Virus record (IMG/VR): IMGVR_UViG_3300034523_000087
Strand: one strand, 5' to 3'
Origin: a virus
DNA: 63,327 nt
The translations under genes were made by a program, and so were the position numbers. How positions within the stretch are numbered: the first letter of the stretch is position 1; each line of letters opens with the position of its first letter. The notes under the pieces are model-generated. The model did no database searches, had not been told where the DNA came from, and saw only the letters and a program-made list of their open reading frames with translations. Positions 8,345-49,860 of this stretch are shown here, in pieces.

Positions 8345-9505
8345 TCACTCCGCGTAATCGAAGTCGCCGCGTGCTTTTGCCTGCTCAGCTTCGGACATCG
8401 ACTCGATATCTTTCAGCGTTTGCGGAGTACGCACGAGCGCGGAAGCCGCGGCAGGCGGTGCAACGGCCGGCGACTTCGGCTGGTTCGACACGGCGGCGGT
8501 TGCGCGGGATACGGCTTCTTTCCGACGTTCCTGGCGCGCGCGATCCTGCGGCGTTTGCTGACCCAGCGGTTTCACCGCAGCGGCTTGTTCCACGCCCAGG
8601 ACGTACTCGACGGCACGGGTCATGGCGATGACCTTGCCGTACTTCGGCGACAGGGACTGGAACAGCTCGTTGATCTCGTCGACGGTGCCCTGGTCGAACG
8701 CCTCGGCGTTGTTGTCGTCCAGCACGGCGTGAGTAGACCGCAGATTGGTCAGCAGCTCTTCAAACTTCAGGTTCTCCAGCTGTTCGCGGGCGCGCTCGTC
8801 AGCGATGCTCTCGGCGCGCTTGGTAGCCATGGCTTCCTGAATCGCGCGCATGTCCTTGCGGATCTGCGGCAGCAGATCGAAGTCGTTGGCTTTCATCGCC
8901 TCGATTTCGCGCGATTCCAGCTTGTCGTAGCTGGCCTGGAGATCGACCAGTTCAGAGGTCAGCGCGCGGGAGCGGTTCTGCTGCTCCAGCAGGTGCTCGG
9001 CAGCCCGGCGGCGCTCGGCTTCCTTCTGCATGCGGGAGCGCGGAACCATGTTCGGGATCGGGCGACCCTTATCGTCGAGCTTCTGCTCCGGCTCCGGCTC
9101 CGGTTCCGGTTCCTGCTCCGTCCCGGACTTGCCCTCGGGCTTGTCTTCGGGCTTGTCTTCGGGCTTGTCTTTGCCTTCCGGTTCGTCTTTGGCTTTCGGC
9201 TCGTCTTTGGATTTAGCCTCGGCGGAGTTCGGGTCCGCGGGATTGTCGCCGCGATCCTCCGGGAACTCTTCTTCTACGGTTTTCCGTGCAAAGCGACCTT
9301 GTTCGTCGCGCGCCGGCGCGTCGGTTTTCGGCGCGGGGCTATCGTCGAACAGCGCCACGTCGCCGCGGTCACCGTCTTCGTTGTGCGCACCCGGAGTGGC
9401 GTCGCCGGCAGGGATGGAATCGATGTCGATATCAGCCTCGGCACCGAAGGCGGCAGCACCTTCGTCGATCGGGGCGGACAGTACATGTCGAAGGAAATTA
9501 CGCAT
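8345..9505 (-). CDS. scaffolding protein
   Basis: Track ORF 8345..9520; ATG 9505 has the better RBS (GGAGA) and an 8-nt overlap with the portal gene. Acidic, low-complexity (KDEPKAKDEPEGKDKPEDKPE, EPEPEPEPE) and helical; lies between portal and capsid. Confidence 0.8.
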   Translation of the reverse strand: MRNFLRHVLSAPIDEGAAAFGAEADIDIDSIPAGDATPGAHNEDGDRGDVALFDDSPAPKTDAPARDEQGRFARKTVEEEFPEDRGDNPADPNSAEAKSKDEPKAKDEPEGKDKPEDKPEDKPEGKSGTEQEPEPEPEPEQKLDDKGRPIPNMVPRSRMQKEAERRRAAEHLLEQQNRSRALTSELVDLQASYDKLESREIEAMKANDFDLLPQIRKDMRAIQEAMATKRAESIADERAREQLENLKFEELLTNLRSTHAVLDDNNAEAFDQGTVDEINELFQSLSPKYGKVIAMTRAVEYVLGVEQAAAVKPLGQQTPQDRARQERRKEAVSRATAAVSNQPKSPAVAPPAAASALVRTPQTLKDIESMSEAEQAKARGDFDYAE

Positions 9506-11684
9506 CAGTGGATTCTCCATTCTTCGCGGGGGTAGGTTTCGGCTCTTGGGCGGCCTTCTCTGCTTCGATCCTCATTTTAAGCCGTTCCGTAACCGCGTCC
9601 AGTCGCAGTTTCTCCCGGTCGAGTGCCAGCTCGGCAGTTTTGATCTTGAGATCGTTGTCTACCTTGGTCTGTTCGAGCGCCAACCGCGCGGCTTCGATGT
9701 CCACACGCTGCTGCTCGATGTCGGCACGCTGCTGCTCGGTATCGGTGCCGGCCTTGAGCGCATCCGTCTCGGCCTGGACATTCTTGACGTTGGCCTGGGC
9801 GGACTTGTTCGCGGCGTCGGACTGCGCACGCTGCGCCTCGGCGGTGACTTTCGCCAGATTCGCCTGGGCAGTAGCCAGTTGCAGCTGGCGCAGCTGCTGC
9901 GCCTCCGGCGAATTCGCCTCGCTCTGCATCTGCTCGATGATGTCAGCTTTGTCCAACAGGCGGCTGTTCTGGATAAGCACGGTGTCGGGGATATTGATCC
10001 CTTCCTTGCGCATCGCCAGCGCCTGATCGAACTGGCTGTCCTCCAGGGTTTCCCGCGCAGGCACGGACTGGACGGTGACGAGGTATTCACCCAGGGTCAG
10101 GTCGTTGGCGATCTCACCTTCCGGGGTCACCTCGTTGATGGTGAACGACTCGTCTTTGTTCACGCCGCCGCCGTTGATGTACAGCAGTCGCTCTTCGTAG
10201 TAGTAGGTCTGCACGATGCTCAAGATCGCACGGGCCAGGAACACGTCACTACGGTCGAGGTTGTCGAGGATACGAGCCATGCCGGCGCGCCCAGCCATGC
10301 GGTTGGTTTCCAGGGCGCGGGCAGACACGTCCTCCCGTGCCTCGCCGCGCATGTAGTCGGTCACGCCGGAGATCGCCTTGATCCATGCCTGGGCCTTCTG
10401 GTTCATGCCTTCCAAGCCAGCCGGGAGCTGGTTCGGCTGGATCTTGTCGATGTCGTTCACGTCCTCGACTTCGACCACCAGACCTGTCTCGGCACCGCGT
10501 GCCTGGAGGTCGTCGACGGTCATGTTCTTGAGAGATCCGTGCTTCACCTTCCAGCCGCTATTGGCCGTGGTGTTGAGGATGTGCAGCTCCTGGCTGGCGG
10601 TTTTGTTCAACAGCTCCTGCACGCCGAACAGCTGCTCGACGATACCGGTGGTGTGCCCGAAGCGGAAATGCGGGAAATACGGAACGACCGTCAGGTACTC
10701 GTAGGGACTCCACCCGTCGTGCAGCAAGGTAGAGCCGGCTACCACGGTCCAACGAATCCGCTTGGCGATCTGCGAAATCTGCACGATGGACGGGTTCCGC
10801 ATCAGGTACTCAGCGGTCTTCAGCTCGTCCCAGCTGTCCGGCACAGGACGCAGCTCCCCGGTGCGCGTGTCGACGAACAGCTCCCGGCGGGTCAGTACGC
10901 GGTACTGCCGGTCAACCACGCGGATGTAGGCATCCTGGCGCTGGGTGCCCTCTTCGGTCTTGTTGATGTACTCCGGCAGCGCGATCCGGTCCCGATACTG
11001 GTCCGGGATGTCATTGGTCTGCGCAGAACGGTACTGGTTGGCCAGCGCGCGCAGCTCCTGGGTCTTCTTTTTCCCGTACAGGGCTTCGAGGCTATTCGGG
11101 GACATCCAGCGGGAGACGATCACGTCTTCCCAAGTCGCAGGGTCATAGTCAGTCGCGTCGGGGTCGATCAGCACCTCTTTCGGGTTCAGGGTCGTGACGG
11201 CCACCTCCCCGTACAGGTTCTCCGTGAAGTCCAGGCGCACGTCGTAGAACCCGCGTCCGGTGATGTTCCCGTCCTCGAACACGTCCGTACGCTTCCACGT
11301 CAGGTGGTTCCCCTGGCTGATGTGCTTGAACGTCTTGTTCAGGGCGGTGGCGGTTCGGTCGTCGACGTTCCCGTACCGCGGGCTGAAGCGGATCTCGTTC
11401 CGTCCGCCGATCTGTTCCCCGACCATCACGTCCATGGTCTGGAGCACCAAGTTGATCGTCAAGGCCGGGCGGCGCTGCGCCCGCAAGCGGGTGATATCGT
11501 CCTCTTTCCACTGGTCACCCCACCAGAAGTTTTGGCACTTCTCGGCGGTGAGGATGAACTTGTCGTGGCCGCTGTCGCGCATGTAGTCGTATCGGCACCA
11601 CGTCGCGTTGACCAGTAAGGACTCGTCGTTCTTCGACAACGTGCCCGGTAGCGGCAGGTCAAAGGTGTATGCGGAGTTGATCAT
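9498..11684 (-). CDS. portal protein
   Basis: 728-aa ORF directly downstream of TerL and upstream of the scaffold gene; size and position typical. Confidence 0.8.
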   Translation of the reverse strand: MINSAYTFDLPLPGTLSKNDESLLVNATWCRYDYMRDSGHDKFILTAEKCQNFWWGDQWKEDDITRLRAQRRPALTINLVLQTMDVMVGEQIGGRNEIRFSPRYGNVDDRTATALNKTFKHISQGNHLTWKRTDVFEDGNITGRGFYDVRLDFTENLYGEVAVTTLNPKEVLIDPDATDYDPATWEDVIVSRWMSPNSLEALYGKKKTQELRALANQYRSAQTNDIPDQYRDRIALPEYINKTEEGTQRQDAYIRVVDRQYRVLTRRELFVDTRTGELRPVPDSWDELKTAEYLMRNPSIVQISQIAKRIRWTVVAGSTLLHDGWSPYEYLTVVPYFPHFRFGHTTGIVEQLFGVQELLNKTASQELHILNTTANSGWKVKHGSLKNMTVDDLQARGAETGLVVEVEDVNDIDKIQPNQLPAGLEGMNQKAQAWIKAISGVTDYMRGEAREDVSARALETNRMAGRAGMARILDNLDRSDVFLARAILSIVQTYYYEERLLYINGGGVNKDESFTINEVTPEGEIANDLTLGEYLVTVQSVPARETLEDSQFDQALAMRKEGINIPDTVLIQNSRLLDKADIIEQMQSEANSPEAQQLRQLQLATAQANLAKVTAEAQRAQSDAANKSAQANVKNVQAETDALKAGTDTEQQRADIEQQRVDIEAARLALEQTKVDNDLKIKTAELALDREKLRLDAVTERLKMRIEAEKAAQEPKPTPAKNGESTDA

Positions 11685-11697
11685 CGGGCGTTCCCCA

Positions 11698-13569
11698 TCA
11701 TGCGCTCATGTGACTGCCGTTCCCGACGCCGCGCAGGATGTCGGACAACTGCTGCGCAACGGTGCGATCCCCGCGACGCGGCCGGCGCGCGGAAAGAGGG
11801 AGCGGTGGGTTCTTAGTAAGGATCAGCTGTGCCATCCATGCAAGCGCGTCGACTATATCATCGTGCCGGCCTACCGGGAATCGAAGGAACTCAGCCTTCA
11901 TCGTATCGATCCAGCGAGCGCCGCGGCGCAGCGTGACCATGTGGTTCGCCATACGGCCCTGGAGCGGCCGGGCACGTGCCGATTTATCGGTCAGCGGCTT
12001 CAGCAGCTCGACCTTGACGTAGATTTTCCGCCGCTTGGCCTCGGCTTCGAAATACGGCCTGATCGACTTCCAAATCTGCCCATCTTCCACGCCCAGGACG
12101 GGGTTGTGCGACTTGTACCGCTGCACGGTGTCGAGTATGGCCGTGACCACCTTCGAGCTGTCCCCCGTGCGCATACGGATGATGTCGTCGACGTGGATCG
12201 TGTCGTTCGGCATGTGCAACCCGGCGGCGATGACGGTGTAGTCACTGGTCTGCTTCTCGGTGATCGCGAAGTCCACGGTGATGTACGCCGTGCCGTCGTA
12301 GCGCTCGTCCCCAGGGTCGTGCTCGATGAAGTAGTCCGACTTGAAGTATTCCCCGTCGTCCGGCACCGGGTTCTGCTGGTACAGGCTGTTCCAGTCCCGC
12401 GCATGCAAGATCCGTTTCAGGTTGAGCAGGTACTTCCGGCTGTACCGGGCTTCGTGCAGAGCTTCCCCGGCCTTCCTGAACGGTACGGCACCGGGCAGCG
12501 GTGAATCGACGATCGTATCGTCCTGGGCCAGCCACTCGTCGTTCTCGGCCAAGGCAGCGAAGTTGACGATCTTCCACTTCTCATACTCAGGGTCTTCCTC
12601 CATCGCGGCGCAGAGCCGGCCGGACAGGTCATCATCGTGCCAGCGGGTGTTGATCAGCAGCACGCCGCCGCCGGGGGTCAAACGGGTCAGCGCCGTCGAG
12701 GTGTACCAGTCCCAGGTCTTCTCCCGGATCGTCTCCGAATCCGCCGACTCCCGGTCCTTGAACGGGTCGTCGATGATCAGCATGTGGCAGCCCATACCAG
12801 TCACGCCGACGCCAACGCCCGCGGCACGTACACCGCCGCCTTTCGACGTGGCCCAGTCATCGATACGCTCGTTGACCAGTTCCAAGTCCGGGAAGATCGC
12901 CTTGTATTCCTGGCTCTTCACCGTGCTGAGGATGTCGCGGGACATCTTCTCGGCCAAGTCCATGCCGTAGCTGGCCAGGATGATCCCCGCCTCTGGGTAT
13001 TTCCCCAGCGCCCAGGCCGGGAACTTCCGGCTGGTCTGCTCGGATTTCCCGTGCCGCGGCGGGAACGTGACCATGACGCGGGGCGACCGCCCATTCATGG
13101 AGTCGTCGAGAAATTGCTCCAGTACGCGCGCCAGGATCTCGTGGGCGACGGCTACCTCGTACTTCGAGTTCATCTTCTGCACGAACGGGAGGAACCGCCG
13201 GCGCATGAGCGTGCGCTCGGCCATGATCTTCTGCGCGGCGGCCAGCTGGTACTCGTGGCTATCCCGGCTGACGACCCCGATACTGCCGTCCTCGTAGATC
13301 ACGTGGGCCGAATTCGACCGCGTGTTCTCGCGCATGATCTTCGGGTTGGCGCGGGGCTTCTTCTTGTCGATCCGGTCTTTCTTCAGTTTGGCCGTTTTCG
13401 GGATCGGCACGGTATCGACAGGATCATTCGCTACATCGACGATCTTGTTCCCTCGGCCGGCGACGCGGCAGGACAGACAGATCCCGGTGCTGTGCCTGGG
13501 GGTATAGATCGGCGATTCGCACTTCGAGCAGTGCCAGCGCGGCTTACGCTCACTCGACGTATTCGGCAT
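11698..13569 (-). CDS. terL: terminase large subunit with N-terminal Zn-ribbon extension
   Basis: Walker A-like FPPRHGKSE, Walker B HMLIIDDPF, nuclease-domain start AYITVDFAITEKQTSDYTV; the extra ~120 aa at the N-terminus contain CSKC...CLSC. Confidence 0.9.
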   Translation of the reverse strand: MPNTSSERKPRWHCSKCESPIYTPRHSTGICLSCRVAGRGNKIVDVANDPVDTVPIPKTAKLKKDRIDKKKPRANPKIMRENTRSNSAHVIYEDGSIGVVSRDSHEYQLAAAQKIMAERTLMRRRFLPFVQKMNSKYEVAVAHEILARVLEQFLDDSMNGRSPRVMVTFPPRHGKSEQTSRKFPAWALGKYPEAGIILASYGMDLAEKMSRDILSTVKSQEYKAIFPDLELVNERIDDWATSKGGGVRAAGVGVGVTGMGCHMLIIDDPFKDRESADSETIREKTWDWYTSTALTRLTPGGGVLLINTRWHDDDLSGRLCAAMEEDPEYEKWKIVNFAALAENDEWLAQDDTIVDSPLPGAVPFRKAGEALHEARYSRKYLLNLKRILHARDWNSLYQQNPVPDDGEYFKSDYFIEHDPGDERYDGTAYITVDFAITEKQTSDYTVIAAGLHMPNDTIHVDDIIRMRTGDSSKVVTAILDTVQRYKSHNPVLGVEDGQIWKSIRPYFEAEAKRRKIYVKVELLKPLTDKSARARPLQGRMANHMVTLRRGARWIDTMKAEFLRFPVGRHDDIVDALAWMAQLILTKNPPLPLSARRPRRGDRTVAQQLSDILRGVGNGSHMSA

Positions 13570-14263
13570 CTTCGGCTCCTTCGATTTCCTCGGCCGACAA
13601 GATCCGGCTGTTCTCTTGGATCACCTTCAGCAGCTCGGCGTCGGTCTTGGTCTGCATCTGTGCCGCGATCTGCGCTGCGCCGCCGGTGATCTCGATCTTG
13701 ACCTTGGCTTCGTACATCCCGTGCATCAGACCCAGTTCCCGGTAGCCGGCGATCATCGTGCGGGGGTCAGCCATCTGCCGGGCGATGGCAATGGCGTCCC
13801 GGAACCCGTGGATGATCTCTTCGCGCGTGACCTCGCTGATCTCCATGTTCTTTTCGAACAGCGTACGCAGCGCGCGCTGTACGCCGACACGGTTCATCAG
13901 CTTCTTGGCATCTGCTGCGGGGGAGGGGAAGTTCGCGCCGGCGGCGGCATCGACAGGACTCTGCCCCTGGGCCACACGGATACAGAACTCCCTTTCCATG
14001 GGGTCGAGGTCCATCAGGGACTTCGCACGGGTGCGCTGGAGCTTGTAGTGACGCTGCTCGTCAGGGTCAACGAACGAATGCTCCGGCTTGACCTCGGCCA
14101 CTGCGGTCGATGCGCGTGACATAGCGGTGGCTGCCTTGGTTTTTGAGGGCGGCCGCCGGGAAGTGGTCTTGGTAGTGACCGGCTTGGCGGTCTTGGTAGA
14201 GGTGCTGGCCTTGGTAGTCTTGGTAGAGGTGCTGGCCTTGGCGGCTTTGGTGGTGCGTGCCAT
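13550..14263 (-). CDS. terS: terminase small subunit
   Basis: Track ORF 13550..14275 starts at GTG; ATG 14263 has a GGAG RBS. Lys/Thr-rich repeat N-terminus, then a helical core (VTREEIIHGFRDAIAIAR...YRELGLMHGMY) typical of small terminases; upstream of terL. Confidence 0.75.
   Translation of the reverse strand: MARTTKAAKASTSTKTTKASTSTKTAKPVTTKTTSRRPPSKTKAATAMSRASTAVAEVKPEHSFVDPDEQRHYKLQRTRAKSLMDLDPMEREFCIRVAQGQSPVDAAAGANFPSPAADAKKLMNRVGVQRALRTLFEKNMEISEVTREEIIHGFRDAIAIARQMADPRTMIAGYRELGLMHGMYEAKVKIEITGGAAQIAAQMQTKTDAELLKVIQENSRILSAEEIEGAEDAEYVE
14166..14244. repeat. 27-bp tandem repeat (2 perfect-like units plus 1 degenerate) inside terS
   Basis: TCTTGGTAGAGGTGCTGGCCTTGG at 14191 and 14218; encodes KASTSTKTT repeats. 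Confidence 0.85.
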
Positions 14264-14328
14264 GTCGTACTCCACGGGGATGGGACGGCTGTTTCATGGC
14301 ACAAAGTGTAGCGGGGCAGGGAGTAGGT

Positions 14329-14344
14329 GGTCCATCCATGGACC
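14329..14344. other. palindrome GGTCCAT-CC-ATGGACC upstream of terS
   Basis: 7-bp arms in the 135-bp gap before terS. Confidence 0.6.
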
Positions 14345-14410
14345 GGTCGGCATGGCTCGCAGGTTCAGTCTACGCAGCTGCCGAGGGGCGCGTAAAGAGG
14401 TCGACGCCGG

Positions 14411-14764
14411 TCAAATTTCGAGCGATTCACTGATTCTGGTAAGCGTCAGCTCTACACAGCGCAGGCGGTCGTTCAGGGAGTCGAGCGCGTTGAACAGGGG
14501 GCTGTGTACGGCGGGAGACACCGGTATTTCGCTGTTCGCTGCAATGGTGGTCACCCTGACCGGTGCGAGCCGAGCTGCCAGCTCGTCCACTGCACGATCG
14601 AGGCGATTGATGGTGCGCTCGATCTCGATGACGGCATCGGCCACGGGCGAAGAAGTAGCCTGCGTGGCTTGTGCGGCCTGTGCGGTGCTGGCGGATGCGT
14701 AGCCGACCTGTCCGCTACGGGTAGAGGGGGCATCGAACGGCGATACGGGGGTAGGTGCGGACAT
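14411..14764 (-). CDS. hypothetical protein (117 aa)
   Basis: Internal ATG of track ORF 14411..14932 with AGGAG RBS, 5 nt after the upstream stop. Confidence 0.65.
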   Translation of the reverse strand: MSAPTPVSPFDAPSTRSGQVGYASASTAQAAQATQATSSPVADAVIEIERTINRLDRAVDELAARLAPVRVTTIAANSEIPVSPAVHSPLFNALDSLNDRLRCVELTLTRISESLEI

Positions 14765-14769
14765 GGTAG

Positions 14770-15129
14770 TCACTCCTGTACGGGGCTGGTGAGGCCGTTG
14801 GGTTCCAGACGTACATCCATCCAGGCGCGGAAGCCGGCCAGTTCCCACAACTTGTCGCGGGCCTGATCCAAGGCTTTGCCAGTGGCGATGCGCTCGCCGA
14901 TCTCGCGGTCGAAGTTGTTCGGGTCCACACACGCGCTGATGGCAGTGGACAAGGTGAACTCGCCGTCGAGCAGCGCGACAGCAACGGTCGTGGTGGTGCC
15001 TTCTACTACATGGCAGCGGACGATCACGCGGTCGAACAGGCCCTGGATGTACGACGAAGGGATACGCGGGGCGGTCAGACCCTTGGCTTTCATTTCCTGT
15101 TCGGTCTTGCTTTCGGTTTCGATGGACAT
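14770..15129 (-). CDS. Gp49-like protein (N4 gp49 / Sf6 gp66 family look-alike)
   Basis: Internal ATG of track ORF 14770..15204 with AGGAG RBS; TTTVAVALLDGEFTLSTAISACVDPNNFDREIGERIA...ARDKLWELAGF matches my memory of that family. Confidence 0.65.
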   Translation of the reverse strand: MSIETESKTEQEMKAKGLTAPRIPSSYIQGLFDRVIVRCHVVEGTTTTVAVALLDGEFTLSTAISACVDPNNFDREIGERIATGKALDQARDKLWELAGFRAWMDVRLEPNGLTSPVQE

Positions 15130-15133
15130 TTGA

Positions 15134-15565
15134 TCACTCCTGGGGCTTGTTAAGTCCGTGTTCGTCGGTGGTGACGAGATCAGGGTTCGCGCCGGTGATA
15201 GCACTCGACAGCGCGGACGGCTCGGCGTGCATCAGCTCGTGTTCAGCTCGTTCGATCTCAGCACGCTTGGACTCGATCACGTCCTTGTTGCTGTAGGAGC
15301 CGTGCTTGCCTTCTTCCACTTCACGAGCCAGCTCGTCGATGGAGGGCAAGCCGAAGGCTTCACGAGCACGTTGGATGATGCCGCCGTACGAGTTGACCAG
15401 ATCCATGTGCAGGGTGGCGAGTTCGCGCATGGCGTCGTCGGCCCGGAACTGATCTTCGGAGTCGATGCACTGCTGGAGGTATTCGACGCGGGACTTGAGG
15501 TAGTCGAGATCGTTGAGGTGGGTAACGCAGGCTGCGATGGTGACTTGCTTCAGGGAGGGGTTCAT
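15134..15565 (-). CDS. hypothetical protein (143 aa), first leftward gene
   Basis: Track ORF; first minus-strand gene next to the divergent control region. Confidence 0.7.
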   Translation of the reverse strand: MNPSLKQVTIAACVTHLNDLDYLKSRVEYLQQCIDSEDQFRADDAMRELATLHMDLVNSYGGIIQRAREAFGLPSIDELAREVEEGKHGSYSNKDVIESKRAEIERAEHELMHAEPSALSSAITGANPDLVTTDEHGLNKPQE

Positions 15566-16783: not shown

Positions 16784-17575
16784 ATGACCTACATCACCGA
16801 TCTGCTCGATTCCAAGTCCCCGGCTGCACTGGCTGCTCTGCGTTCCACCGCGAACAGCTGCCTGATGCGTGCCGTCAATCAGGCACTGAAGCTGGCGCGC
16901 ATGCAACTGCGTCATGTTGGTCGCGGCATCGACGGTGCCAACGACCTGCGTGCCATGGCTGACGCTGCGAAGGCTCGCGCTCAGCAGCTGGACAGCGCCG
17001 GACGGGACAGTATCACTTCCGAGGAAGTCATCCTGCGCAACTTCCGCCTGTACTACGCCATCGCCACTCGGCTGGAGGATCGCGACAGCGAGTACGAGCG
17101 TGCGATGACCGTCGACCAGGCATTCGAATTCGTGACCACTCCGCGCGACAGCAGCAAGCTGTCGCAGTCCGCCGAGCTGGCTGCGTTGTCGAAGATCTCC
17201 GGTATGTCGCCTGAAGACATCCTGAAGATGCGCGACCTCGACGCTCGCCGGTACGCGGACTCGGCCAAGGATGCGCAGCCGCTGGCTCGTGTCATCCTCG
17301 ACGACATCCCGCACAACGGTGTCAGCGAGGACGAGCTGTTCCTCGAACTCCCGGTCGAGCAGCAGTTCCAGACCTTCGCCAAGGCCACTGAGGCCGCGGT
17401 GGTGCAGCTGCAACGCGACACGCAGCGTGCTGCTCGCTTCCTCGAAAGCCCGGTGCGTGCGCTGCGTGACCTCGCGTTCAGCGACGTGACCGTGAGCAAG
17501 GCCGATGCGGACTCCCTGGAGAAACAGCTGGAGCACTTCATCGTCACCCACAAGTCCGAACTGGAATTCATGTAA
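16784..17575 (+). CDS. hypothetical early protein (263 aa)
   Basis: Track ORF 16748..17575; ATG 16784 lies after the terminator and has an AGGA RBS; followed by terminator. Confidence 0.75.
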   Translation: MTYITDLLDSKSPAALAALRSTANSCLMRAVNQALKLARMQLRHVGRGIDGANDLRAMADAAKARAQQLDSAGRDSITSEEVILRNFRLYYAIATRLEDRDSEYERAMTVDQAFEFVTTPRDSSKLSQSAELAALSKISGMSPEDILKMRDLDARRYADSAKDAQPLARVILDDIPHNGVSEDELFLELPVEQQFQTFAKATEAAVVQLQRDTQRAARFLESPVRALRDLAFSDVTVSKADADSLEKQLEHFIVTHKSELEFM

Positions 17576-17580
17576 ACCCT

Positions 17581-17612
17581 GGCGCTCGACTCTTCGGAGT
17601 CGAGCGCCTTTT
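17581..17612 (+). terminator. intrinsic terminator
   Basis: GGCGCTCGACTC-TTCG-GAGTCGAGCGCC-TTTT. Confidence 0.85.
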
Positions 17613-17651
17613 CCGCGTTCTACCCTCAACCACCAACCGCGCCTGGGCGCT

Positions 17652-18068
17652 ATGGACATCACTATGGACATCATCAAAAGCAGCACCAACGAAGTCGACA
17701 CCGACGCCGTGATGGAAGAACTCCACAACATCATGGCCAGCTACGCCGAGCGCGGCATATTCCTGTCGCTCTACTTCACCACCAACATCGAGATCGTCAA
17801 CAAGGACGGCAACGATTACGGCTTCCGTGCTGCACGCGGCATGGTCAGCGTACCGGGCTGGGTGCATGGCGGTGGTATCGGCGCTGTCCTGAGCGCTATG
17901 GGTGAAGGCGTCGAGTTCACCGACAACCCGGTCACCCTGGTACTGCGTGCTGCTCAGCACGCCGCGGCGCACCAACAACTGATCACCGAGCACATGAATC
18001 AGGTGGGCGAAATCGGCCTGATCCAGCTTGTGGATAACTCCAAGTTGGACGTGGTGAAAATCGACTGA
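17652..18068 (+). CDS. hypothetical acidic early protein (138 aa)
   Basis: Internal ATG of track ORF 17505..18068; followed by a GC-rich hairpin. Confidence 0.65.
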   Translation: MDITMDIIKSSTNEVDTDAVMEELHNIMASYAERGIFLSLYFTTNIEIVNKDGNDYGFRAARGMVSVPGWVHGGGIGAVLSAMGEGVEFTDNPVTLVLRAAQHAAAHQQLITEHMNQVGEIGLIQLVDNSKLDVVKID

Positions 18069-18082
18069 TTTCCACACGTGTG

Positions 18083-18122
18083 TGAGGGGAGCGGGGAGGG
18101 CCGACCCGCCCCCTTCTCCCCT
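18083..18122 (+). terminator. long GC-rich hairpin at the left edge of R1 (weak U-tract)
   Basis: GAGGGGAGCGGGGAGGG-CCGA-CCCGCCCCCTTCTCCCCTC, then CACCCTTTCTG. Confidence 0.5.
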
Positions 18123-18244
18123 CCACCCTTTCTGTATCGATCGCTAACCTAAGTGGTTGTTTCTTGAAACCAATTAGCTTTTTCTATCGCTGTAACGATT
18201 TCGTTCCAAACAGGATGAGACTGACTCTCAACAACCGTCACGAT

Positions 18245-18281
18245 GTTACGAAATTCCGTCCACCGACGAAAATTTCGTAAC
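18245..18281. other. inverted repeat GTTACGAAATT-N15-AATTTCGTAAC
   Basis: 11-bp perfect arms built from two inverted iterons. Confidence 0.85.
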
Positions 18282-18336
18282 ACGCTCCAGCCCAGGCAGC
18301 ACTAGGGGCACAGAGCTTTCTGTTACGATGTTACGA

Positions 18337-18400
18337 TCTTTTCTTCTTTATTCCACTACAGAAAAAAATAAATAAGTAATAGATATAGTTAATAAGTACA
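18337..18400. other. AT-rich core of R1
   Basis: CTTTTCTTCTTTATTCCACTACAGAAAAAAATAAATAAGTAATAGATATAGTTAATAAGTACA in an otherwise GC-rich genome. Confidence 0.85.
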
Positions 18401-18473
18401 TAGGGGCCATATGTACATGCTATCTGTAGCGGAATATCACCAAACTTCGTAACATTCGTGACAAAACCGGCTG

Positions 18474-18700
18474 AAACCCGCGTGGCACTAAGGCTAGAGG
18501 CCTGTTACGAAATTTTTTGAGATCGTGACAATCGTGACAAAATTTCCGCCCCGATCTGCCTCAAACCCGCGTGGCACTAAGGCTCCAGGCTGTCACGAAA
18601 TTTTTTGAAGATCGTGACAAAACCTCTCCCTCACTCGGCGCAAAGCCGCGTGGCACTAAGGCTCCAGACTGTCACGAAATTTTCTATGCGTTTTCCGTCA
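18474..18700 (+). promoter_or_regulatory. three tandem ~80-89-bp units, each carrying the conserved box CCGCGTGGCACTAAGGCTCCAG..TGTYACGAAATTTT
   Basis: GTGGCAC at 18482, 18571 and 18650; units end with TGA(A)GATCGTGACAA; all point toward gene 18747. Confidence 0.6.
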
Positions 18701-18746
18701 ATCCGTGACCAAATCATCCATTTCAGTCATCCACAGGAGCCTGGAA

Positions 18747-19289: not shown

Positions 19290-19292
19290 GTA

Positions 19293-19340
19293 CCCACTCA
19301 CCCACTCACCCACTCACCCACTCACCCGCTTACTCACCCT
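19293..19340. repeat. octamer tandem repeat (CCCACTCA)x4 plus two degenerate units
   Basis: Perfect units at 19293, 19301, 19309 and 19317; lies in the intergenic gap before the pentapeptide-repeat gene. Confidence 0.9.
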
Positions 19341-21622: not shown

Positions 21623-22156
21623 ATGCACGTAAAGAAACGTGATCGGATTCTTGCCAATCAGACAGCCGCCGCGCAGAAGGTCTACGCGTGCGTGCCGATT
21701 TCCGAATCATGGCCAGCGCACAAGATCATGGCGCAGCTGAAGATCGATCTCGGCTCGTCCATGAGCGTCGCCGTCGTGCGAGGATGCCTGAGAGCACTGC
21801 ACGAGTCCGGGCTGATCCGACGGCCGAGCAGCGACCTGTACATCCGTGAGCCGGTCGTTACGGCTGCCGCTCAGCCCGCTCAGCCCGCTCAGCCCGTTCA
21901 ACCTGCTCAACCCACTGAACCCGCTCCGCCTGCTCAACCCGAACAACCGAAGGAATCCAGCATGTCCGCATCGATCGTTTCCCTGCTCAGACTCGCGAAC
22001 AGTCTCTCGACCCTGGCCGTCGAGATCGAAGAACGTCTGTCCGAAGCCGCAGCCGATATCGAGAAGATGGCCAGGCAGCTGGAAACCGAAACCGCCGCGT
22101 ATCGTGAGCAGCTGGCCAAACTGAAGCAGCTGCAAACCCTGCTGAAGGATCTGTAG
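21623..22156 (+). CDS. putative winged-helix DNA-binding protein with (A/P)Q-rich linker and coiled-coil tail
   Basis: Track ORF; the N-terminal ~75 aa look wHTH-like (SVAVVRGCLRALHESGLIRR); nine 9-bp repeats encode AQPAQPAQPVQPAQPTEPAPPAQPEQP; heptad-like C-terminus. Confidence 0.7.
   Translation: MHVKKRDRILANQTAAAQKVYACVPISESWPAHKIMAQLKIDLGSSMSVAVVRGCLRALHESGLIRRPSSDLYIREPVVTAAAQPAQPAQPVQPAQPTEPAPPAQPEQPKESSMSASIVSLLRLANSLSTLAVEIEERLSEAAADIEKMARQLETETAAYREQLAKLKQLQTLLKDL
21869..21949. repeat. nine 9-bp in-frame repeats (GCTCAGCCC-like)
   Basis: Encodes the AQP/EQP linker of gene 21623..22156. Confidence 0.85.
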
Positions 22157-22158
22157 CC

Positions 22159-22410
22159 ATGATCAACAAGCGAACCGAACCCCGTAAGAACCTCGAAGAA
22201 ATCCGCCAGCAGCACGAGGCGTATATCGCCGAGCATAAAGCCTCCGGCGGCGTGACGCAGGTCTACCGTTGCCCGTTCTGCGCCCTGCCCATCGAAACCG
22301 CATCGCCGTCGACCAAGCACAACATGTGGGACACCATGACGACCTGCCCCTGGTGCGACGGTTTGCACTTCAAGCGTGTGTACTTCACTCACGTCGAGAC
22401 ACGAGCATGA
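22159..22410 (+). CDS. small Zn-ribbon protein (83 aa)
   Basis: Track ORF; CPFC...CPWC. Confidence 0.7.
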   Translation: MINKRTEPRKNLEEIRQQHEAYIAEHKASGGVTQVYRCPFCALPIETASPSTKHNMWDTMTTCPWCDGLHFKRVYFTHVETRA

Positions 22411-30433: not shown

Positions 30434-32839
30434 ATGGACATCGCTTTCCTGTCCGCACCCGTGCCTCTGACGAAAACGTACAAGCAGCTTCGCGGACGCA
30501 TCGAAAAATCGAACTATCCGAACACCTCTTCCTTCACCTCGTACACCGAGCACCCGAAACGCCTCGAAGATTTCTACGCCGTCATTGTCGAGCATGCCAA
30601 GCAAGGGCACTGCTTGCTCAAGGGGCAGCTCAACCGCGACCTCGTTGAAGAATCCCGCGCCGGCTCTACCGAGAGCAACCAGGCAACTGAATGGGTCTGC
30701 CTGGACATCGACGGCCTTGAAGTCGAATCGCCCCAGGCATTCATGGATGCCATCGGCCTGGGCAGCGTGAGCTACATCGTCCAGTACAGTTCGAGCTATG
30801 GGGTGCTGGATGACCTGCTCCGCTGCCACATCTTCTGCTTGCTGGACAAGCCGGTCGCGGCACCGTTGCTGAAGCAATGGTTGATCGATGTCAATTTCAA
30901 CACCGAACTTCTGTGCAGCCAGATGACGCTGACGCCCAGCGGTAACGGATTGCATTGGCCGCTCGACATCACTACCTGCCAGAACGACAAGCTGCTGTAC
31001 ATCGCGCCGCCGAACCTGATCGGCGTGCCTGACCCTCTAGTCGCCGACGAGCGCTACCAGCTCGTGAAGAACAAGGGCACGCACTTCAAGCTCCCGAAGC
31101 AGATCGGTACCGTGAGCGCGAACCGCTCTCGTATCGACGATAAGGTCAACGAGCTGCGCCTGGAAGCAGGCATGCCCAAGCGCAAGGCGTCGAAGTACAA
31201 CAGCATCGGCCCTGTCGAGTTCGTGTCGAACCCGGACCAATGCACCGTCACCGGGATCAAGGAAGACCGTGGCTTCGTCTACCTGAACCTGAACGGCGGC
31301 GATAGCTGGGGTTACTACCACCCGGTTGACAAGCCGGACTTCATCTACAACTTCAAAGGGGAGCCGACTTACAAGACCAAGGATCTGGTCCCGGACTATT
31401 GGCACGACCAGCAACGCAAGGTCGAAGAGGCCGAAGAGTCTGGCGAAGTCATCACGCATCTAGCGTTCCGTGATTTCAACTCGGCGAAGTATTACAACGG
31501 CTGGTACGACCCGGACACGCGCGAACTGGTACTCAAGCAGGCAGCGAGCGAAAAGCAGCTGGCTGACTACATGGCAATCCAAGGCCGGGCGCTGAGCGAC
31601 CGAATCCCTATCTGGTCCTTGGAATTCCTGCCGTCTGAGGACTGGACCCTGAACCGTGAGTACGACCCGCCGGTCATCAACACGTTCGTGCAAAGCCCGT
31701 ACCTCCAGGCGAAGCGGCCGAGCAAAGTCCCGTCCGTACCGACGTTGATCGGCAGGATCATCCACCATGCGCTTGGCAGCGACCAGGCCGTAACCGACCG
31801 GTTCTATAACTGGCTCGCCGCGGTCATGCAGAAGCGCGTTGCCATAGGCACCAGCTGGGTTCTCAGCGGTACCCAGGGCACCGGTAAGGGACTCATCTGC
31901 AACAAGATCCTGCGCCCGATCCTGGGCGACACGTACGTGCAGCAGAAACGCATGGACGAGCTGGACGAGAAGTTCAACGATTTCATGGAGCAGTGCATTT
32001 TTCTGTTCGTTGACGAAGTGCAGCTATCTGAAATGCGCAACGGCCGCGCGCTCATGCAGCGAATCAAGAACCAGATCACCGAGGAACGCATCAGCATCCG
32101 GGGTATGCACCGCGCCGGGCAGATGATGACGAACCATGTGAATTGGATCTTCTGCACGAACATGCCGGACCCGATCTACCTGACCAGCGACGATCGTCGG
32201 TTCAACGTGGCACCGTTCCAACCGAACAAGCTGCTGATCACCGCAGAAGAGATCGAAGCGATCGAAGATGAACTTCAACAGTTCTGCGACTACCTGCTAA
32301 TGCGCGAAGTCGACTACGACCTGGCGCGCGCCGTGGTAATGACCGAGCAGCGTGAGCGCTTGATCAACACCAGCAGCACCAGCATCGAACTGGCGTGCGA
32401 CGCAGTGCGCCGTGGGGATCTTCAGTTCTTCTTGGACGAGCTGCCCAGCGATAGCCAGTCGTTTGTCCTGCCCGACACGATGCTGAAGCTGACGCAGTAC
32501 AAGCGTGCGCTTCGGGAGGTCATCGAACACGCGTCTACGGGCGGCAAAGGGGTAGGCCGTGACGTACTGCACACCCTCATGCGGTACGTGCTGCCGGACT
32601 GCCCAACGTCCAGCCACAAGTTCACGTCGCTGATCAAGCACCACGGCCTGTACGTCCAATCGCTTCGCATCGGCACGCGCACCACGCGCGGTGTCGAAGT
32701 GGATTGGGTCATCCCGGAAGGTGCGCTTGAACAGCTGGACGGCGTGGCCGACAAACCGGTCAACGACGATATCTCGCCGAAGACCAAAGCAGAACTCAAG
32801 AAGCACCTCAAGGGTGTAGCAGGAGGTAAGAAAGAATGA
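30434..32839 (+). CDS. bifunctional AEP primase-polymerase / SF3 (D5- or P4-alpha-like) helicase
   Basis: N-terminal AEP motifs WVCLDIDGL and TPSGNGLHWPL; C-terminal Walker A GTQGTGKG, Walker B FLFVDEV, motif C NWIFCTN. Confidence 0.9.
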   Translation: MDIAFLSAPVPLTKTYKQLRGRIEKSNYPNTSSFTSYTEHPKRLEDFYAVIVEHAKQGHCLLKGQLNRDLVEESRAGSTESNQATEWVCLDIDGLEVESPQAFMDAIGLGSVSYIVQYSSSYGVLDDLLRCHIFCLLDKPVAAPLLKQWLIDVNFNTELLCSQMTLTPSGNGLHWPLDITTCQNDKLLYIAPPNLIGVPDPLVADERYQLVKNKGTHFKLPKQIGTVSANRSRIDDKVNELRLEAGMPKRKASKYNSIGPVEFVSNPDQCTVTGIKEDRGFVYLNLNGGDSWGYYHPVDKPDFIYNFKGEPTYKTKDLVPDYWHDQQRKVEEAEESGEVITHLAFRDFNSAKYYNGWYDPDTRELVLKQAASEKQLADYMAIQGRALSDRIPIWSLEFLPSEDWTLNREYDPPVINTFVQSPYLQAKRPSKVPSVPTLIGRIIHHALGSDQAVTDRFYNWLAAVMQKRVAIGTSWVLSGTQGTGKGLICNKILRPILGDTYVQQKRMDELDEKFNDFMEQCIFLFVDEVQLSEMRNGRALMQRIKNQITEERISIRGMHRAGQMMTNHVNWIFCTNMPDPIYLTSDDRRFNVAPFQPNKLLITAEEIEAIEDELQQFCDYLLMREVDYDLARAVVMTEQRERLINTSSTSIELACDAVRRGDLQFFLDELPSDSQSFVLPDTMLKLTQYKRALREVIEHASTGGKGVGRDVLHTLMRYVLPDCPTSSHKFTSLIKHHGLYVQSLRIGTRTTRGVEVDWVIPEGALEQLDGVADKPVNDDISPKTKAELKKHLKGVAGGKKE

Positions 32840-39420: not shown

Positions 39421-39787
39421 CCCCAACTGGCTGGCGATGCAAGACCCGAATGACCCTAACCTGAATAAGAACTACCGGAGATCGGTTCGCTACTACCGTC
39501 AGCTGTTCATGGCCTGGCCGAAGTGGTGCGCCGATCATCCGGGATACAAGAAAATCTACGACGAAGCCGCGCGCCGTCGTAGTGCTGGCGAGGACGTACA
39601 TGTCGATCACATCGTGCCGATCTGCTCCAAGCTGGTTTGTGGCCTGCACGTCCCATGGAATTTGCAGATCATAGGCGCCGGTCCGAACCTCAAGAAATCA
39701 AACTTGTGGTGGCCGGATCACCCGTTCGAGAACCAGTGTTTGTTCGGCGGGGCTGAAGAACCGGAACAGTACGAATTACGTCTGTAA
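39395..39787 (+). CDS. HNH endonuclease
   Basis: VHVDHIVPI...GLHVPWNLQII...NLKKSN (H-N-H core). Confidence 0.8.
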   Translation: MAAPKSRTNPNWLAMQDPNDPNLNKNYRRSVRYYRQLFMAWPKWCADHPGYKKIYDEAARRRSAGEDVHVDHIVPICSKLVCGLHVPWNLQIIGAGPNLKKSNLWWPDHPFENQCLFGGAEEPEQYELRL

Positions 39788-43289: not shown

Positions 43290-43626
43290 GCTACGCTGCC
43301 GCTGCCGCGAATGCGGCGCTCGGAACACCAAGCGCGGGGATCTGAAGTTCGGTCTTGCCCGCGCTCGGTGCCGAGTCTGCAAAAAGATCGGCACGTTGCG
43401 TGTCGATAAATGGGCTGACAGAAGAGGCTGGTTGGTCGGCAGGCTATGCCGTTGCAGTGGTGTACCGTTCCCCCACCGGCCGAGGCTGGTTGGTTACGTC
43501 ACGCACTGCGGCGCTGAAATTTTCGTGGAGTGTACGTGTGGCCAGGGGTATCGGATCGACGAAGCGCCGGCAGGAACTGTCGAAGCGTGCGGCCCGGTTG
43601 AAGAGCCAGGGCTTTACCCTTTCTGA
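43267..43626 (+). CDS. Cys-rich multi-Zn-ribbon protein (119 aa)
   Basis: GTG start; CRCRECG...CRVCKK...CRCSG...HCG...CTCGQG; the 3' end overlaps the HTH reading frame. Confidence 0.55.
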   Translation: MKRPRKAKLRCRCRECGARNTKRGDLKFGLARARCRVCKKIGTLRVDKWADRRGWLVGRLCRCSGVPFPHRPRLVGYVTHCGAEIFVECTCGQGYRIDEAPAGTVEACGPVEEPGLYPF

Positions 43627-43708
43627 AATATCGACCATGACGGGCATACCGCGCGATAAGGTCAACATGCGCGTGAAGCTCGGCGAGCGGTTACTGAGCC
43701 TGGAGTGA
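43538..43708 (+). CDS. possible small HTH DNA-binding protein (56 aa), or C-terminal domain of a frameshift fusion
   Basis: Frame of track ORF 43355..43708; GTG 43538 with GGAG 7 nt upstream; QGFTLSEISTMTGIPRDKVNMRVK looks like a LuxR/sigma-region-4-type HTH. Confidence 0.4.
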   Translation: MARGIGSTKRRQELSKRAARLKSQGFTLSEISTMTGIPRDKVNMRVKLGERLLSLE

Positions 43709-48026: not shown

Positions 48027-48704
48027 TCACACCTCCAGCGTGATCGCCACGCCTATGTCTATGAAAAGGGTAGTCGGGTCGAGCGCGAAGCCTACGATCA
48101 ACGAGAACAACGCGCCAGGGGGAACAGTCTGCGTGAGGTTGCCATCCTGGCCGAGGAACACAGCTCCGGGCGTCCACGCCCACCCGGAGTGTTGCACTTC
48201 ACCGAGACGCTGCACATCCACTGTGCCGCCAGGGGATGCCGCATTCAGCGACAGCCCGAGTGTGTTGATACGGTTGATCATCGTCGAGCAGTCAGCGTAC
48301 ACGACCTGATCGGCATCGATAGGTGCCACCATGCGATGGCCGGACATCGGGGTAAGCGCCACCTTCTGGATGATCGCGCCGCCGGCTGGTCCAGGCTCGC
48401 CCTTGTCACCCTTTCGCCCAGGCTGCCCAGCCAGGACAACGAACGCCGCCGAGCGCAGATCCTGAACCTGCTGCGCCCCAGGCTGGATCATCACTTCGGT
48501 CACTGCCTGGTCCGGCGGCAGCACCATGTCGGTGTACTCCAGCTGCGAAGCTCGGCGCGCCAACGGCAGGACGATCTCCATGTCCGGGTCACGTACAAGA
48601 AGAGCCTGGTGCCGCTGGCGCACAACGAGAGCGGTGCGGGCAGCGTTGCGCACAGCCAGGCACTGGCCGACCTGGCGGACGACTAGAGCCTGACCTGCGT
48701 TCAT
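48027..48704 (-). CDS. collagen-like tail fibre protein (225 aa)
   Basis: G-X-Y run GQPGRKGDKGEPGPAGG (nt 48378..48428), followed by a globular C-terminal domain. Confidence 0.75.
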   Translation of the reverse strand: MNAGQALVVRQVGQCLAVRNAARTALVVRQRHQALLVRDPDMEIVLPLARRASQLEYTDMVLPPDQAVTEVMIQPGAQQVQDLRSAAFVVLAGQPGRKGDKGEPGPAGGAIIQKVALTPMSGHRMVAPIDADQVVYADCSTMINRINTLGLSLNAASPGGTVDVQRLGEVQHSGWAWTPGAVFLGQDGNLTQTVPPGALFSLIVGFALDPTTLFIDIGVAITLEV

Positions 48705-49294
48705 TTCGCTACCTCGGCGGTTACGGTCACGCGACCGGAGGCCACCGGGTAGACCACGGTGAGGTCGGCGGGGTCGTACAGTTCGAGGTCGTACAACGCC
48801 TTGTTCCAGTCCAGGGTGGCGGTCACGTCAGCACCGACGACGATGCTTATGGTGCTGGTCGGAATGTCGATCACGACCCGGCCATCAGTCGTGCTCCCGG
48901 TCAGCAGAGCATCGGCGTCACCCGGCGTGCGCCGGATAGCGAAGCGTGCGGCGAGGCCAGTGAGGTCCGCGGGGGTATAGAAGACGATGGTACCGGCCCC
49001 GCCGAACGCCTTGAGCCCGATCCCGTTCACGTCATTGAGTTCGAGGCTGTCCGGGGTCAAGACCTTGGCCAGGTAGAACTGCCCAGGCTGGGTATTCAGC
49101 TCCGGCGGGGCCTTCACGCTCTGCACCTCGAATGGCCAACCATCGGACAGGCCGTGACCGGGCACCGTCAACACGACGGGAGCGGCGGCCGTAGCGCCGG
49201 TTATGGGCCGGTACAGCTTGACCGGATCGGCCCAGCGGAAGGCGAATTCGAACGTCTTCCCCTGGAGAATGTGCAAATCGATAGAGCAAGTCAT
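48701..49294 (-). CDS. virion beta-sandwich protein, first gene of the fibre cassette (197 aa)
   Basis: Track ORF with a strong AGGAGGG RBS; ATGA coupling to the next gene. Confidence 0.75.
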   Translation of the reverse strand: MTCSIDLHILQGKTFEFAFRWADPVKLYRPITGATAAAPVVLTVPGHGLSDGWPFEVQSVKAPPELNTQPGQFYLAKVLTPDSLELNDVNGIGLKAFGGAGTIVFYTPADLTGLAARFAIRRTPGDADALLTGSTTDGRVVIDIPTSTISIVVGADVTATLDWNKALYDLELYDPADLTVVYPVASGRVTVTAEVAK

Positions 49295-49425: not shown

Positions 49426-49483
49426 CTTAAAAGCCGTATCGATCGCATTGATAGTCCAGAGCACAACTATCAATTGTCACGAT

Positions 49484-49520
49484 GTTACGAAATTTTCGGA
49501 ACAGGCCAAAATTTCGTAAC
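49484..49520. other. inverted repeat GTTACGAAATTTT-N11-AAAATTTCGTAAC
   Basis: 13-bp perfect arms; arms conserved with R1 while the loop sequence differs. Confidence 0.85.
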
Positions 49521-49544
49521 ACGCTGGAGCCTTAGTGCCACAAG
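49508..49544 (-). promoter_or_regulatory. copy of the conserved box on the minus strand
   Basis: Minus strand reads CTTGTGGCACTAAGGCTCCAGCGTGTTACGAAATTTT; points toward the fibre cassette. Confidence 0.55.
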
Positions 49545-49576
49545 GGTTCTAGCGATTTCTGTCACGATGTTACGAT

Positions 49577-49640
49577 CTTTACTACTTTATTCCACTACAG
49601 AAAAAATAAATAAGATATATAAAAGATATAGATACTTAGG
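49577..49640. other. AT-rich core of R2
   Basis: CTTTACTACTTTATTCCACTACAGAAAAAATAAATAAGATATATAAAAGATATAGATACTTAGG. Confidence 0.85.
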
Positions 49641-49710
49641 GCCGCCAGGGGTACAGGGTAGTATGTACGTGCTCCAGCTACGAAAAGTTTTCCCGTGACA
49701 ATCGTGACAA

Positions 49711-49734
49711 TCGTGACAGCCTAGTGCCACGCGG
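49711..49734 (-). promoter_or_regulatory. shortened copy of the conserved box
   Basis: Minus strand reads CCGCGTGGCACTAGGCTGTCACGA (lacks the CCAGNCT segment). Confidence 0.45.
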
Positions 49735-49860
49735 CCTCCAGCTGTCACGATCTGTCACGATGTTACGATGTTGGTCCCGGCGACACCCCTCTTGTTGAGA
49801 ACGATTCTCGAAATATCGATTATGGTTAAATTCTCCAGGGCGATATTTCCGCCCCGGAAC

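Follow-up and report, generated by a model that had tools for sequence, protein, structure and literature searches.

The window considered here is the whole 63,327-nt stretch of IMG/VR virus record IMGVR_UViG_3300034523_000087, and it contains two intergenic, repeat-bearing modules, hereafter R1 and R2, that resemble replication origins. Judging from its sequence, the window is a genome, complete or nearly so, from a KPP25-like podophage of Pseudomonas aeruginosa in the genus Kochitakasuvirus; the two regions tested, R1 and R2, share 87-93% identity with KPP25, phiR18, CRPAP1904 and YMC17/07/R4900a. The gene layout was transferred from the records of KPP25-like phages. According to this layout, structural and packaging genes occupy 1..15565 on the minus strand, with the terminase genes at 11698..13569, transcription diverges at ~15.6 kb, early and replication genes run from 15751 to ~46127 on the plus strand, and a second block of structural genes extends from 46213 to the end on the minus strand. 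GC skew tracks the direction of transcription and carries no information on origins. R1 lies in a 680-bp gap within the plus-strand block, between the open reading frame (ORF) 029-like and ORF030-like genes. It is preceded by the five small early genes of the first early operon (ORF025-029-like) and by a terminator-like GC-rich hairpin (18084..18123, plus strand; inverted repeat GAGGGGAGCGGGG / CCCTTCTCCCCTC), which closes that operon just 5' of R1 and starts 16 nt past the stop of ORF 17505..18068. R2 lies in a 566-bp gap within the minus-strand block, and its neighbours, both on the minus strand, are the gene for a 2116-aa virion protein (49861..56211), for which neither a Pfam nor a PDB sequence match was obtained, and an ORF087-like gene (48701..49294).

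A sequence-only reading of the window had drawn attention to dense arrays of a 9-bp repeat, or iteron, confined to these two loci, and had proposed that they form a bipartite replication origin. The confinement was borne out by a pattern search of both strands of the whole window. All 22 exact matches to TGTYACGAW fell inside the two loci, 12 of them in 18244-18678 and 10 in 49475-49769, against an expectation of 1.6 and a maximum of 5 in 100 shuffles, and none was found outside. The shorter 8-mer TGTYACGA has a single additional exact copy, at 6003. Nowhere else in the genome did the motif approach the density seen in the loci, and one-mismatch copies outside both are at or below chance (66 in total versus 94 expected). 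Four one-mismatch iterons lie inside the loci, at 18191 and 18236 in R1 and at 49496 and 49693 in R2. Exact and one-mismatch copies together come to ~14 in R1 and ~12 in R2, close to the ~15 and ~11 counted by eye. The particular arrangements that had been described are likewise present: direct pairs GTCACGATGTTACGA at 18237, 49476 and 49561, head-to-tail triples at 49693-49718 (first copy CCGTGACA) and 49743-49769, and an inverted pair with a 13-nt spacer at 18591-18619.

The extent of the feature proved larger than originally described, in that the iterons are parts of two homologous modules, R1 at ~18134-18710 (18134..18710; 12 exact and 2 one-mismatch iterons) and R2 at ~49436-49800 (49436..49800; 10 exact and 2 one-mismatch iterons). 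An alignment of the modules showed that they are colinear on the plus strand over a shared layout of ~300 bp, comprising an outer set, an inner forward pair ending in ATCTT, a core of ~100 bp, an inner reverse array and further iterons, with the inner arrays convergent on the core in both. In R1, the outer left set (18236..18282) consists of a direct iteron pair (18236-18251), a 23-nt spacer and an inverted iteron (18275-18282), with 12-nt arms that are 100% complementary. The inner left pair TGTTACGATGTTACGA (18321..18336, plus strand) is directed into the core and followed by ATCTT, a feature also seen in the relatives L020, L058, L059, L250 and L253. The core itself (18337..18446) opens with a polypyrimidine tract and the motif CTTTATTCCACTACAGAAAAAA, continues with very AT-rich DNA and includes a dyad, TATTCCACTACAGA / TCTGTAGCGGAATA; an ACAGAAAA...TTTTCTGT dyad is also present in the cores of L020, L058 and L250. 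On the far side, the inner right pair (CGTAACA tt CGTGACA; 18447..18463, minus strand) is again directed into the core. R1 alone then continues with three tandem units of ~80-89 bp (18473..18700, plus strand), detected as repeat families, each of which combines CCGCGTGGCACTAAGGCTCCAG with a forward iteron that a 13-nt AT-rich spacer separates from one or two inverted iterons.

The outer left set of R2 (49475..49521) has the same make-up of a direct pair, a spacer and one inverted iteron, with 14-nt arms that are 100% complementary, and is followed by the inner left pair TGTCACGATGTTACGA (49560..49575, plus strand). Its core (49576..49692), which was aligned to that of R1, shares the CTTTATTCCACTACAGAAAAAA motif and the AT-rich stretch, and the inner right array is a triple (CCGTGACA, ATCGTGACA, ATCGTGACA; 49693..49718, minus strand) directed into the core. 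The remaining segment (49720..49769) holds a GTGGCAC-type element (49724-49730, minus strand) and then the forward triple at 49743-49769. A separate repeat, TATCGATC, occurs seven times in the window against 1.2 expected (18135, 49437, 49862, 11904, 25202, 35733 and 61883), and the copies at 18135 and 49437 border R1 and R2, respectively, on the left, with that at 49862 marking where the R2 gap ends on the right.

That each array abuts an AT-rich core had also been part of the sequence-only reading, and a nearest-neighbour scan of duplex stability, run at widths of 40, 60 and 100 bp, identified the R1 and R2 cores as the two least stable stretches of the genome. The 60-bp minima at 18338-18400 and 49578-49640 have instability z-scores of 5.9 and 6.2, as opposed to 3.2 for the next best stretch, and the R2 core is the least stable duplex of the entire genome. 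Both gaps are also well conserved, with a mean column identity of 96% in each across five Kochitakasuvirus genomes. Within the modules, only 5.1% of the iteron columns are variable in these genomes as against 13.9% of the other columns (Fisher p = 0.001), and the variation in the iterons is largely a C/T toggle at position 4. Substitutions cluster in the spacers between repeat units, and the elements of the R1 units are invariant in the five phages.

The sequence-only reading had further singled out the product of 30434..32839 (plus strand), an 801-aa protein, as a multidomain primase-helicase, and searches with its sequence agree with this. The protein matches Pfam DUF5906 (E 5.5e-20), giving a superfamily 3 (SF3) helicase at residues ~409-669, as well as 'DNA primase' families of PHROGs, and the nearest solved relative of its helicase and C-terminal region in a PDB search is the NrS-1 primase-polymerase (E 8.5e-26, ~26% identity). 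At its N-terminus, CLDIDG and SGNGLHW, picked out by eye rather than by a tool, may represent motifs of an archaeo-eukaryotic primase (AEP)-like domain. Residues 640-801 were modelled with AlphaFold2 using 21 homologue segments; the model has a predicted local distance difference test (pLDDT) value of 81 and displays a helix-turn-helix (HTH) followed by a β-hairpin. When this model was compared with the PDB using Foldseek, the C-terminal region of NrS-1 came first with a probability of 0.96, and later matches were winged-helix proteins (Orc1/Cdc6 on origin DNA, ORC subunits, forkhead and MarR/PadR/Fur), all with E >0.1. The model thus makes a C-terminal winged-helix-like DNA-binding domain, at residues ~700-760, plausible. 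Two other candidates for DNA-binding proteins of the HTH or winged-HTH type, 21623..22156 and 43355..43708, fared less well, since neither matched a DNA-binding family in Pfam or PHROGs. Among the proteins scanned, the only candidates for a replicative helicase were the SF3 primase-helicase and an SNF2-type helicase. Metagenomes contain more than 2,200 homologues of the 801-aa protein, many of them on contigs of 60-70 kb.

Both sites are also occupied in a more diverged relative. A 62,440-bp contig, whose identities to the window are 58% for the primase-helicase, 42% for the giant virion protein, 36% for ORF028 and 32% for ORF087, carries TGTTACG modules at both equivalent positions, that is, past the ORF028 homologue and between the homologues of the giant protein and ORF087. 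A third lineage, L250, encodes homologues of ORF087 and of the giant protein as well, and an R2-type module separates these two genes. Compared with both its flanking genes and its R2 partner, the R1-type module of the 62,440-bp contig is inverted, whereas the two modules of the window are direct repeats; this flip argues against a directional promoter and would be tolerable for a roughly symmetric origin. A further relative, L118 (56% identity), has a ParA/CbiA-like ATPase gene downstream of its replication genes (22058-22376). Some other comparisons were of no help: MW202615 shares the portal and has a different replication module, and ORF087 homologues in other phages follow the adaptor gene without a gap and are uninformative on R2. 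Scans of viral contigs with the ORF087-like or ORF028-like protein singly returned KPP25 itself only, and R2 had no match in the plasmid database.

We considered whether one module might be a recent, non-functional duplicate of the other, R2 of R1 or the reverse, kept alike by gene conversion. The cores do share stretches of 100% identity, as this would predict; however, both sites are occupied in lineages whose proteins are 32-58% identical, the two copies there have diverged from each other with their iterons kept, and the iteron columns are more constrained than their surroundings, leaving such a duplicate very unlikely.

The distance between the two cores is close to half the genome length in each phage compared, the ratio being 0.493 in the window, 0.497 in KPP25, 0.487 in CRPAP1904, 0.498 in phiR18, 0.502 in YMC17 and 0.496 in the 62,440-bp relative. 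Because a spacing of 0.49-0.50 is kept across lineages of ~32-58% protein identity despite one flip, the near-antipodal placement may itself be a selected feature rather than a by-product of conserved gene order, reflecting two equal origins or a programmed barrier, an idea that we put forward only tentatively and rate as rather doubtful. A circle replicated from two equal origins would have four forks and quarter-genome replichores; alternatively, forks may be programmed to meet or stop at the second copy, which would thereby set the switch to concatemer synthesis.

In more distant relatives, only an R1-type element was seen. The homologues of the 801-aa protein in L119 and L120 (42-45% identity) are encoded directly after a gap of ~450 bp that has an R1-like layout with CTTCCAA/TTGGAAG as its iteron, and that is itself preceded by a terminator and about seven small early genes. 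Because this gap adjoins the primase-helicase gene, the R1-type element appears, on these sequences, to be an old partner of that gene with a lineage-specific iteron, and in Kochitakasuvirus ~12 kb of genes now separate the two. Aeromonas phage phiA008 (L013), whose primase-helicase is 26% identical, has one R1-like gap after its first six early genes (2811-3227), with an AT-rich core and inverted repeats of its own that are unlike the iterons of the window; no R2 equivalent was found in this phage. A second phiA008 gap, of 936 bp in the structural block (39565-40557), was discarded as a candidate on account of the two unannotated minus-strand ORFs, of 166 and 160 aa, that it holds.

That only an R1-type element, next to the primase-helicase gene, was seen in phiA008 and L119/L120 fits a reading in which only R1 fires, and R2 is a site of initiator binding that acts as a fork barrier for the theta-to-concatemer switch, in the manner of SPP1 oriR, or as a distant enhancer, in the manner of P4 crr. 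The greater number of iterons in R1 and its three extra units point the same way, as does the circular map, on which R2 lies nearly opposite R1, at a place where forks that leave R1 would converge. The phage also encodes a PD-(D/E)XK nuclease and the SNF2 helicase, and SPP1 itself provides a precedent (PMC6316719, PMC3485210). Against this, R2 retains a full core, the least stable DNA of the genome, along with convergent inner iterons, none of which a pure barrier or enhancer would need, and its core is as well conserved as that of R1. We therefore regard firing from R1 alone as unlikely, though worth keeping in view. Adjoining the PD-(D/E)XK nuclease is a protein with an Nmad5 (nucleotide-modification-associated) domain (33668-34411 and 34505-35233 in the window), and this neighbourhood hints at DNA base modification in this phage group.

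To place the iteron in a wider context, viral contigs of IMG/VR were scanned with GTYACGATGTTACGA as the seed, which yielded 101 stretches, mostly single chance matches. About 10 independent elements, on contigs of 30-64% GC, had clusters with at least 5 TGTYACG per 500 bp, and shared a layout of forward arrays, a core of 85-110 bp and reverse arrays. In 6 of the 8 elements that are not KPP25-like, the cluster directly adjoins a gene for a helicase-initiator. It lies immediately 3' of the gene for a D5_N + DUF5906 + Pox_D5 protein in L062/L052/L061, 36 bp 3' of one for a DnaG zinc ribbon + DUF927 + HTH_56 protein in L104, ~25 bp 3' of one for a DUF927 + HTH_56 protein in L057/L085 and 5 bp 3' of an AAA_25 helicase gene in L117. 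In L094 it lies ~150 bp 5' of a DUF3854 + DUF5906 gene whose product is a homologue of the 801-aa protein (E 4e-11), and in L059 it is found at the 5' end of a gene whose product is 40% identical to the 801-aa protein. A similar scan with CTTCCAATCTTCCAA was swamped by chance matches among the matches listed. Convergent iteron arrays around a core were also noted in L253, a 1.6-kb fragment with TGTTACG, and in L202, with CTTCCAA, neither with an identified neighbouring gene. In the cultured Acinetobacter phage Acjo_20 (L257), an unannotated origin-like region at ~3450-3800, directly upstream of the gene for an 840-aa prim-pol/helicase, has TGTAACGC and TGTTACA repeats convergent on a very AT-rich core.

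In pac and centromere-like sites, too, short boxes are repeated around bendable AT-rich DNA, and the arrays could in principle be packaging sites recognised by the small terminase, or sites for a partition or segregation protein, for which the ParA/CbiA-like gene of L118 might be cited. Yet the terminase genes are not close to either module, a pair of pac sites at half-genome distance would cut a headful genome in two, and no ParA or ParB was detected among the window proteins scanned. Moreover, the recurrent neighbour of the arrays elsewhere is a helicase-initiator rather than a terminase or ParB. Such sites are thus very unlikely, and at best on a par with the non-functional duplicate discussed above.

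A regulatory role deserves more attention. Both modules contain an 18-nt element, GTGGCACTAAGGCTCCAG, in three copies on the plus strand of R1 and two on the minus strand of R2, such that its orientation matches that of local transcription; the GTGGCAC motif that marks it lies at 18482-18488, 18571-18577 and 18650-18656 (plus) and at 49535-49541 and 49724-49730 (minus). All five Kochitakasuvirus genomes have the element unchanged, whereas the 62,440-bp relative lacks it. GTGGCAC resembles the -24 box of a sigma-54 promoter, for which we required GG at -24 and GC at -12 with 10 nt between them; however, TGGCACTAAGGCTCCA has CC where the -12 GC is required, and the element was rejected as such a promoter. 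Scans with sigma-70 promoter and terminator consensus sequences found nothing in either core, and the sole sigma-70-type match in R1 is an artefact, its TTGTCA lying inside an iteron. No Rfam family reached its gathering score anywhere in the window. Next to R2, TGGCATACTTTCCGCA at 49314-49329 (minus strand) is spaced GG-N10-GC like a sigma-54 promoter and does not vary among the five phages, and because it lies only ~6 nt from the ribosome-binding site of ORF087 it is probably not a working promoter.

On the regulatory reading, the repeats would be operator arrays of a transcriptional control region, at which a phage DNA-binding protein, be it the primase-helicase or another, switches the middle genes from R1, before ORF030, and a late sub-operon from R2, before ORF087, with the core acting as promoter or UP-element DNA. 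Several observations are compatible with this: R1 follows a terminator-like hairpin and precedes the next block of genes, R2 precedes ORF087 in a leftward block of ~32 kb that plausibly needs internal promoters, GTGGCACTAAGGCTCCAG has the strand preference described above, and the inverted pairs, at 21 bp centre to centre, resemble dimer operators. The failure of the consensus scan to find a sigma-70-like promoter in either core tells against it, as do the lack of the -12 GC in GTGGCAC and its absence from the 62,440-bp relative, in which the orientation of the module with respect to the genes is moreover flipped. In addition, no regulator-like protein was found among the early genes with Pfam or PHROGs, and the arrays of unrelated elements are found on the 3' side of helicase genes, whose promoters they therefore cannot be. 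Control of transcription as the primary function is accordingly improbable, and we would give it about the same weight as firing from R1 alone. The two roles are compatible, in that an initiator bound to the outlying units could also affect transcription.

Taken together, we favor the reading of R1 and R2 as two copies of an iteron-type lytic replication origin, with a probability that we would put at roughly 0.6 on sequence grounds. It draws directly on the motif statistics, the architecture of the modules, their conservation, the unstable duplex of their cores and the association of such arrays with initiator-helicase genes. The proposal that the loci serve as an origin thus gained comparative support, from the same iterons beside primase- or helicase-initiator genes in unrelated contigs, although not in the P4 ori/crr form in which it was first made. 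An element of this kind is familiar, and it is newly located in this phage group.

We infer from these features which protein binds the iterons, that the core melts, that either or both sites fire and that the genome circularises, and the following scheme would result. The 801-aa protein, with its AEP-like N-terminus, SF3 helicase and winged-helix-like C-terminus, would bind the 8-9-bp TGTYACGA(T) iterons, and the convergent inner arrays would place two helicase assemblies, one at either flank of the ~100-bp core, where the duplex is easiest to melt. The core would then open, the helicases would load themselves, the primase domain would prime, and the family-A DNA polymerase of the phage would extend the primers. 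Extra binding sites would be provided by the inverted pairs further out, those of the three tandem R1 units included, and these could raise the local concentration of the initiator or link its occupancy to downstream transcription. The genome probably circularises, because its relatives have terminase and portal families of the P22 type, and two origins separated by ~0.49-0.50 of its length would divide the circle into replichores of equal size.

Several points weigh against an origin function so conceived. The modules are located 12 kb upstream and 17 kb downstream of 30434..32839 and do not adjoin it, in contrast to the adjacency of origin and initiator gene that typifies the staphylococcal pathogenicity islands (SaPIs) and that was found in the other carriers L059, L094, L062, L104, L057 and L117, and in L119 and L120. 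Middle promoters must be located between a terminator and the next gene, which is exactly the position of R1, and GTGGCAC follows the direction of local transcription, so a regulatory role may coexist or compete with the origin. The association with helicase genes comes from a scan seeded with this very iteron, which entails an ascertainment bias. The C-terminal domains of the differing helicases beside TGTTACG arrays displayed no BLAST or profile similarity to each other, and the occurrence of one iteron beside such dissimilar C-termini may leave room for another binding protein. The winged-helix assignment is itself weak, with a best Foldseek E of 0.13, and the putative recognition helix, xKFTSxLKHH, is nearly equal in the TGTYACG and CTTCCAA lineages. 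A region-by-region comparison of identity in the 801-aa family likewise revealed no special jump at the C-terminus between iteron groups. The sharing of an iteron by dissimilar helicases is possibly a product of ascertainment bias or convergence; alternatively, at least four helicase-initiator architectures may exchange a small, fast-evolving DNA-binding module with which the TGTTACGATCTT iteron travels.

The literature that we found on KPP25 and Kochitakasuvirus does not discuss a replication origin, and the text of the CRPAP1904 paper does not contain the word. KPP25, phiR18 and CRPAP1904 have been used and characterised as therapeutic candidates. If the two modules are indeed origins, they offer two precise targets for origin mapping and for engineering, such as origin-based plasmids and conditionally replicating phages, and supply a role for an 801-aa 'hypothetical protein' that is widespread in metagenomes. 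They would also constitute a Gram-negative counterpart of the SPP1 two-origin system, in which the choice between a second origin and a programmed fork barrier becomes addressable. Finally, convergent iterons around a low-stability core, beside or detached from a primase-helicase gene, would provide a rule for predicting origins in uncultured phages, toward which the set of L253, L202, L104, L057 and L117 should be useful. Elsewhere in the early region, a tandem 8-bp unit, CCCACTCA, is repeated 4-5 times at 19292-19340, in a short gap past the ORF031-like gene and just 5' of a gene that starts at 19376.

Satellite phage P4, with which the sequence-only reading had compared the window, has an octamer iteron in two separated clusters, and its alpha protein is a primase-SF3 helicase with a C-terminal DNA-binding domain. 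The P4 crr is an enhancer composed of iterons only, without an unwinding core of its own, and lies a few kb from ori. The window resembles P4 in having the same iteron in two separated clusters, and the class of SF3/DUF5906-type helicase is common to alpha and the 801-aa protein, some homologues of which also match PF05272. Nevertheless, the ori/crr analogy does not fit, since both window modules are complete, and R2 in particular has a full, conserved core and convergent iterons instead of iterons alone. The window primase domain also looks AEP-like and not of the P4 type, and P4 alpha was not among the matches of the 801-aa protein in either the PDB sequence search or Foldseek. For the helicase and C-terminal region of the 801-aa protein, the nearest relative of solved structure is NrS-1 gp28, at only ~26% identity. 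On balance, we think that the pair of complete modules stands somewhat nearer to the oriL/oriR of SPP1 and to the SaPI origins than to P4 ori/crr.

In SaPIs, the origin has 6-12 short iterons immediately downstream of rep, with at least two opposed iterons on each side of an AT-rich centre, and the self-loading Rep helicase binds these iterons through its C-terminal winged helix (PMC9371898). Two iteron sets of opposite orientation around an easily melted AT-rich centre are found in both R1 and R2, the candidate initiator is itself a helicase, and several of the TGTTACG contigs have the exact SaPI arrangement, immediately 3' of a DUF927/HTH_56 helicase gene. The differences are that SaPIs have a single origin directly downstream of rep, whereas the window has two, 12 and 17 kb from the gene, and that a DUF927/MCM-like helicase and iterons of 5-6 bp are replaced in the window by a DUF5906 SF3 helicase and iterons of 8-9 bp.

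Of the two SPP1 origins, oriL is contained in gene 38 and oriR interrupts the late genes, each consisting of repeats and an AT-rich unwinding element bound by gp38 (PMC6316719), and according to one proposal, forks that stall at oriR with gp38 bound bring about the switch from theta to concatemer replication (PMC6316719, PMC3485210). The window, too, belongs to a lytic phage with two separate origin-like regions, both of which combine repeats with an AT-rich element and one of which lies among late genes, and the P22-type terminase and portal families of its relatives suggest headful packaging. However, SPP1 uses a dedicated gp38, a loader and a DnaB-type helicase where the window offers a single primase-SF3 helicase as the candidate, and its oriL is inside the initiator gene, with the origins ~13 kb apart on a 44-kb circle, as opposed to two intergenic modules about half a genome apart. 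By analogy, the window feature would thus combine a SaPI-like module architecture, probably served by a helicase-initiator, with an SPP1-like duplication into the late region.

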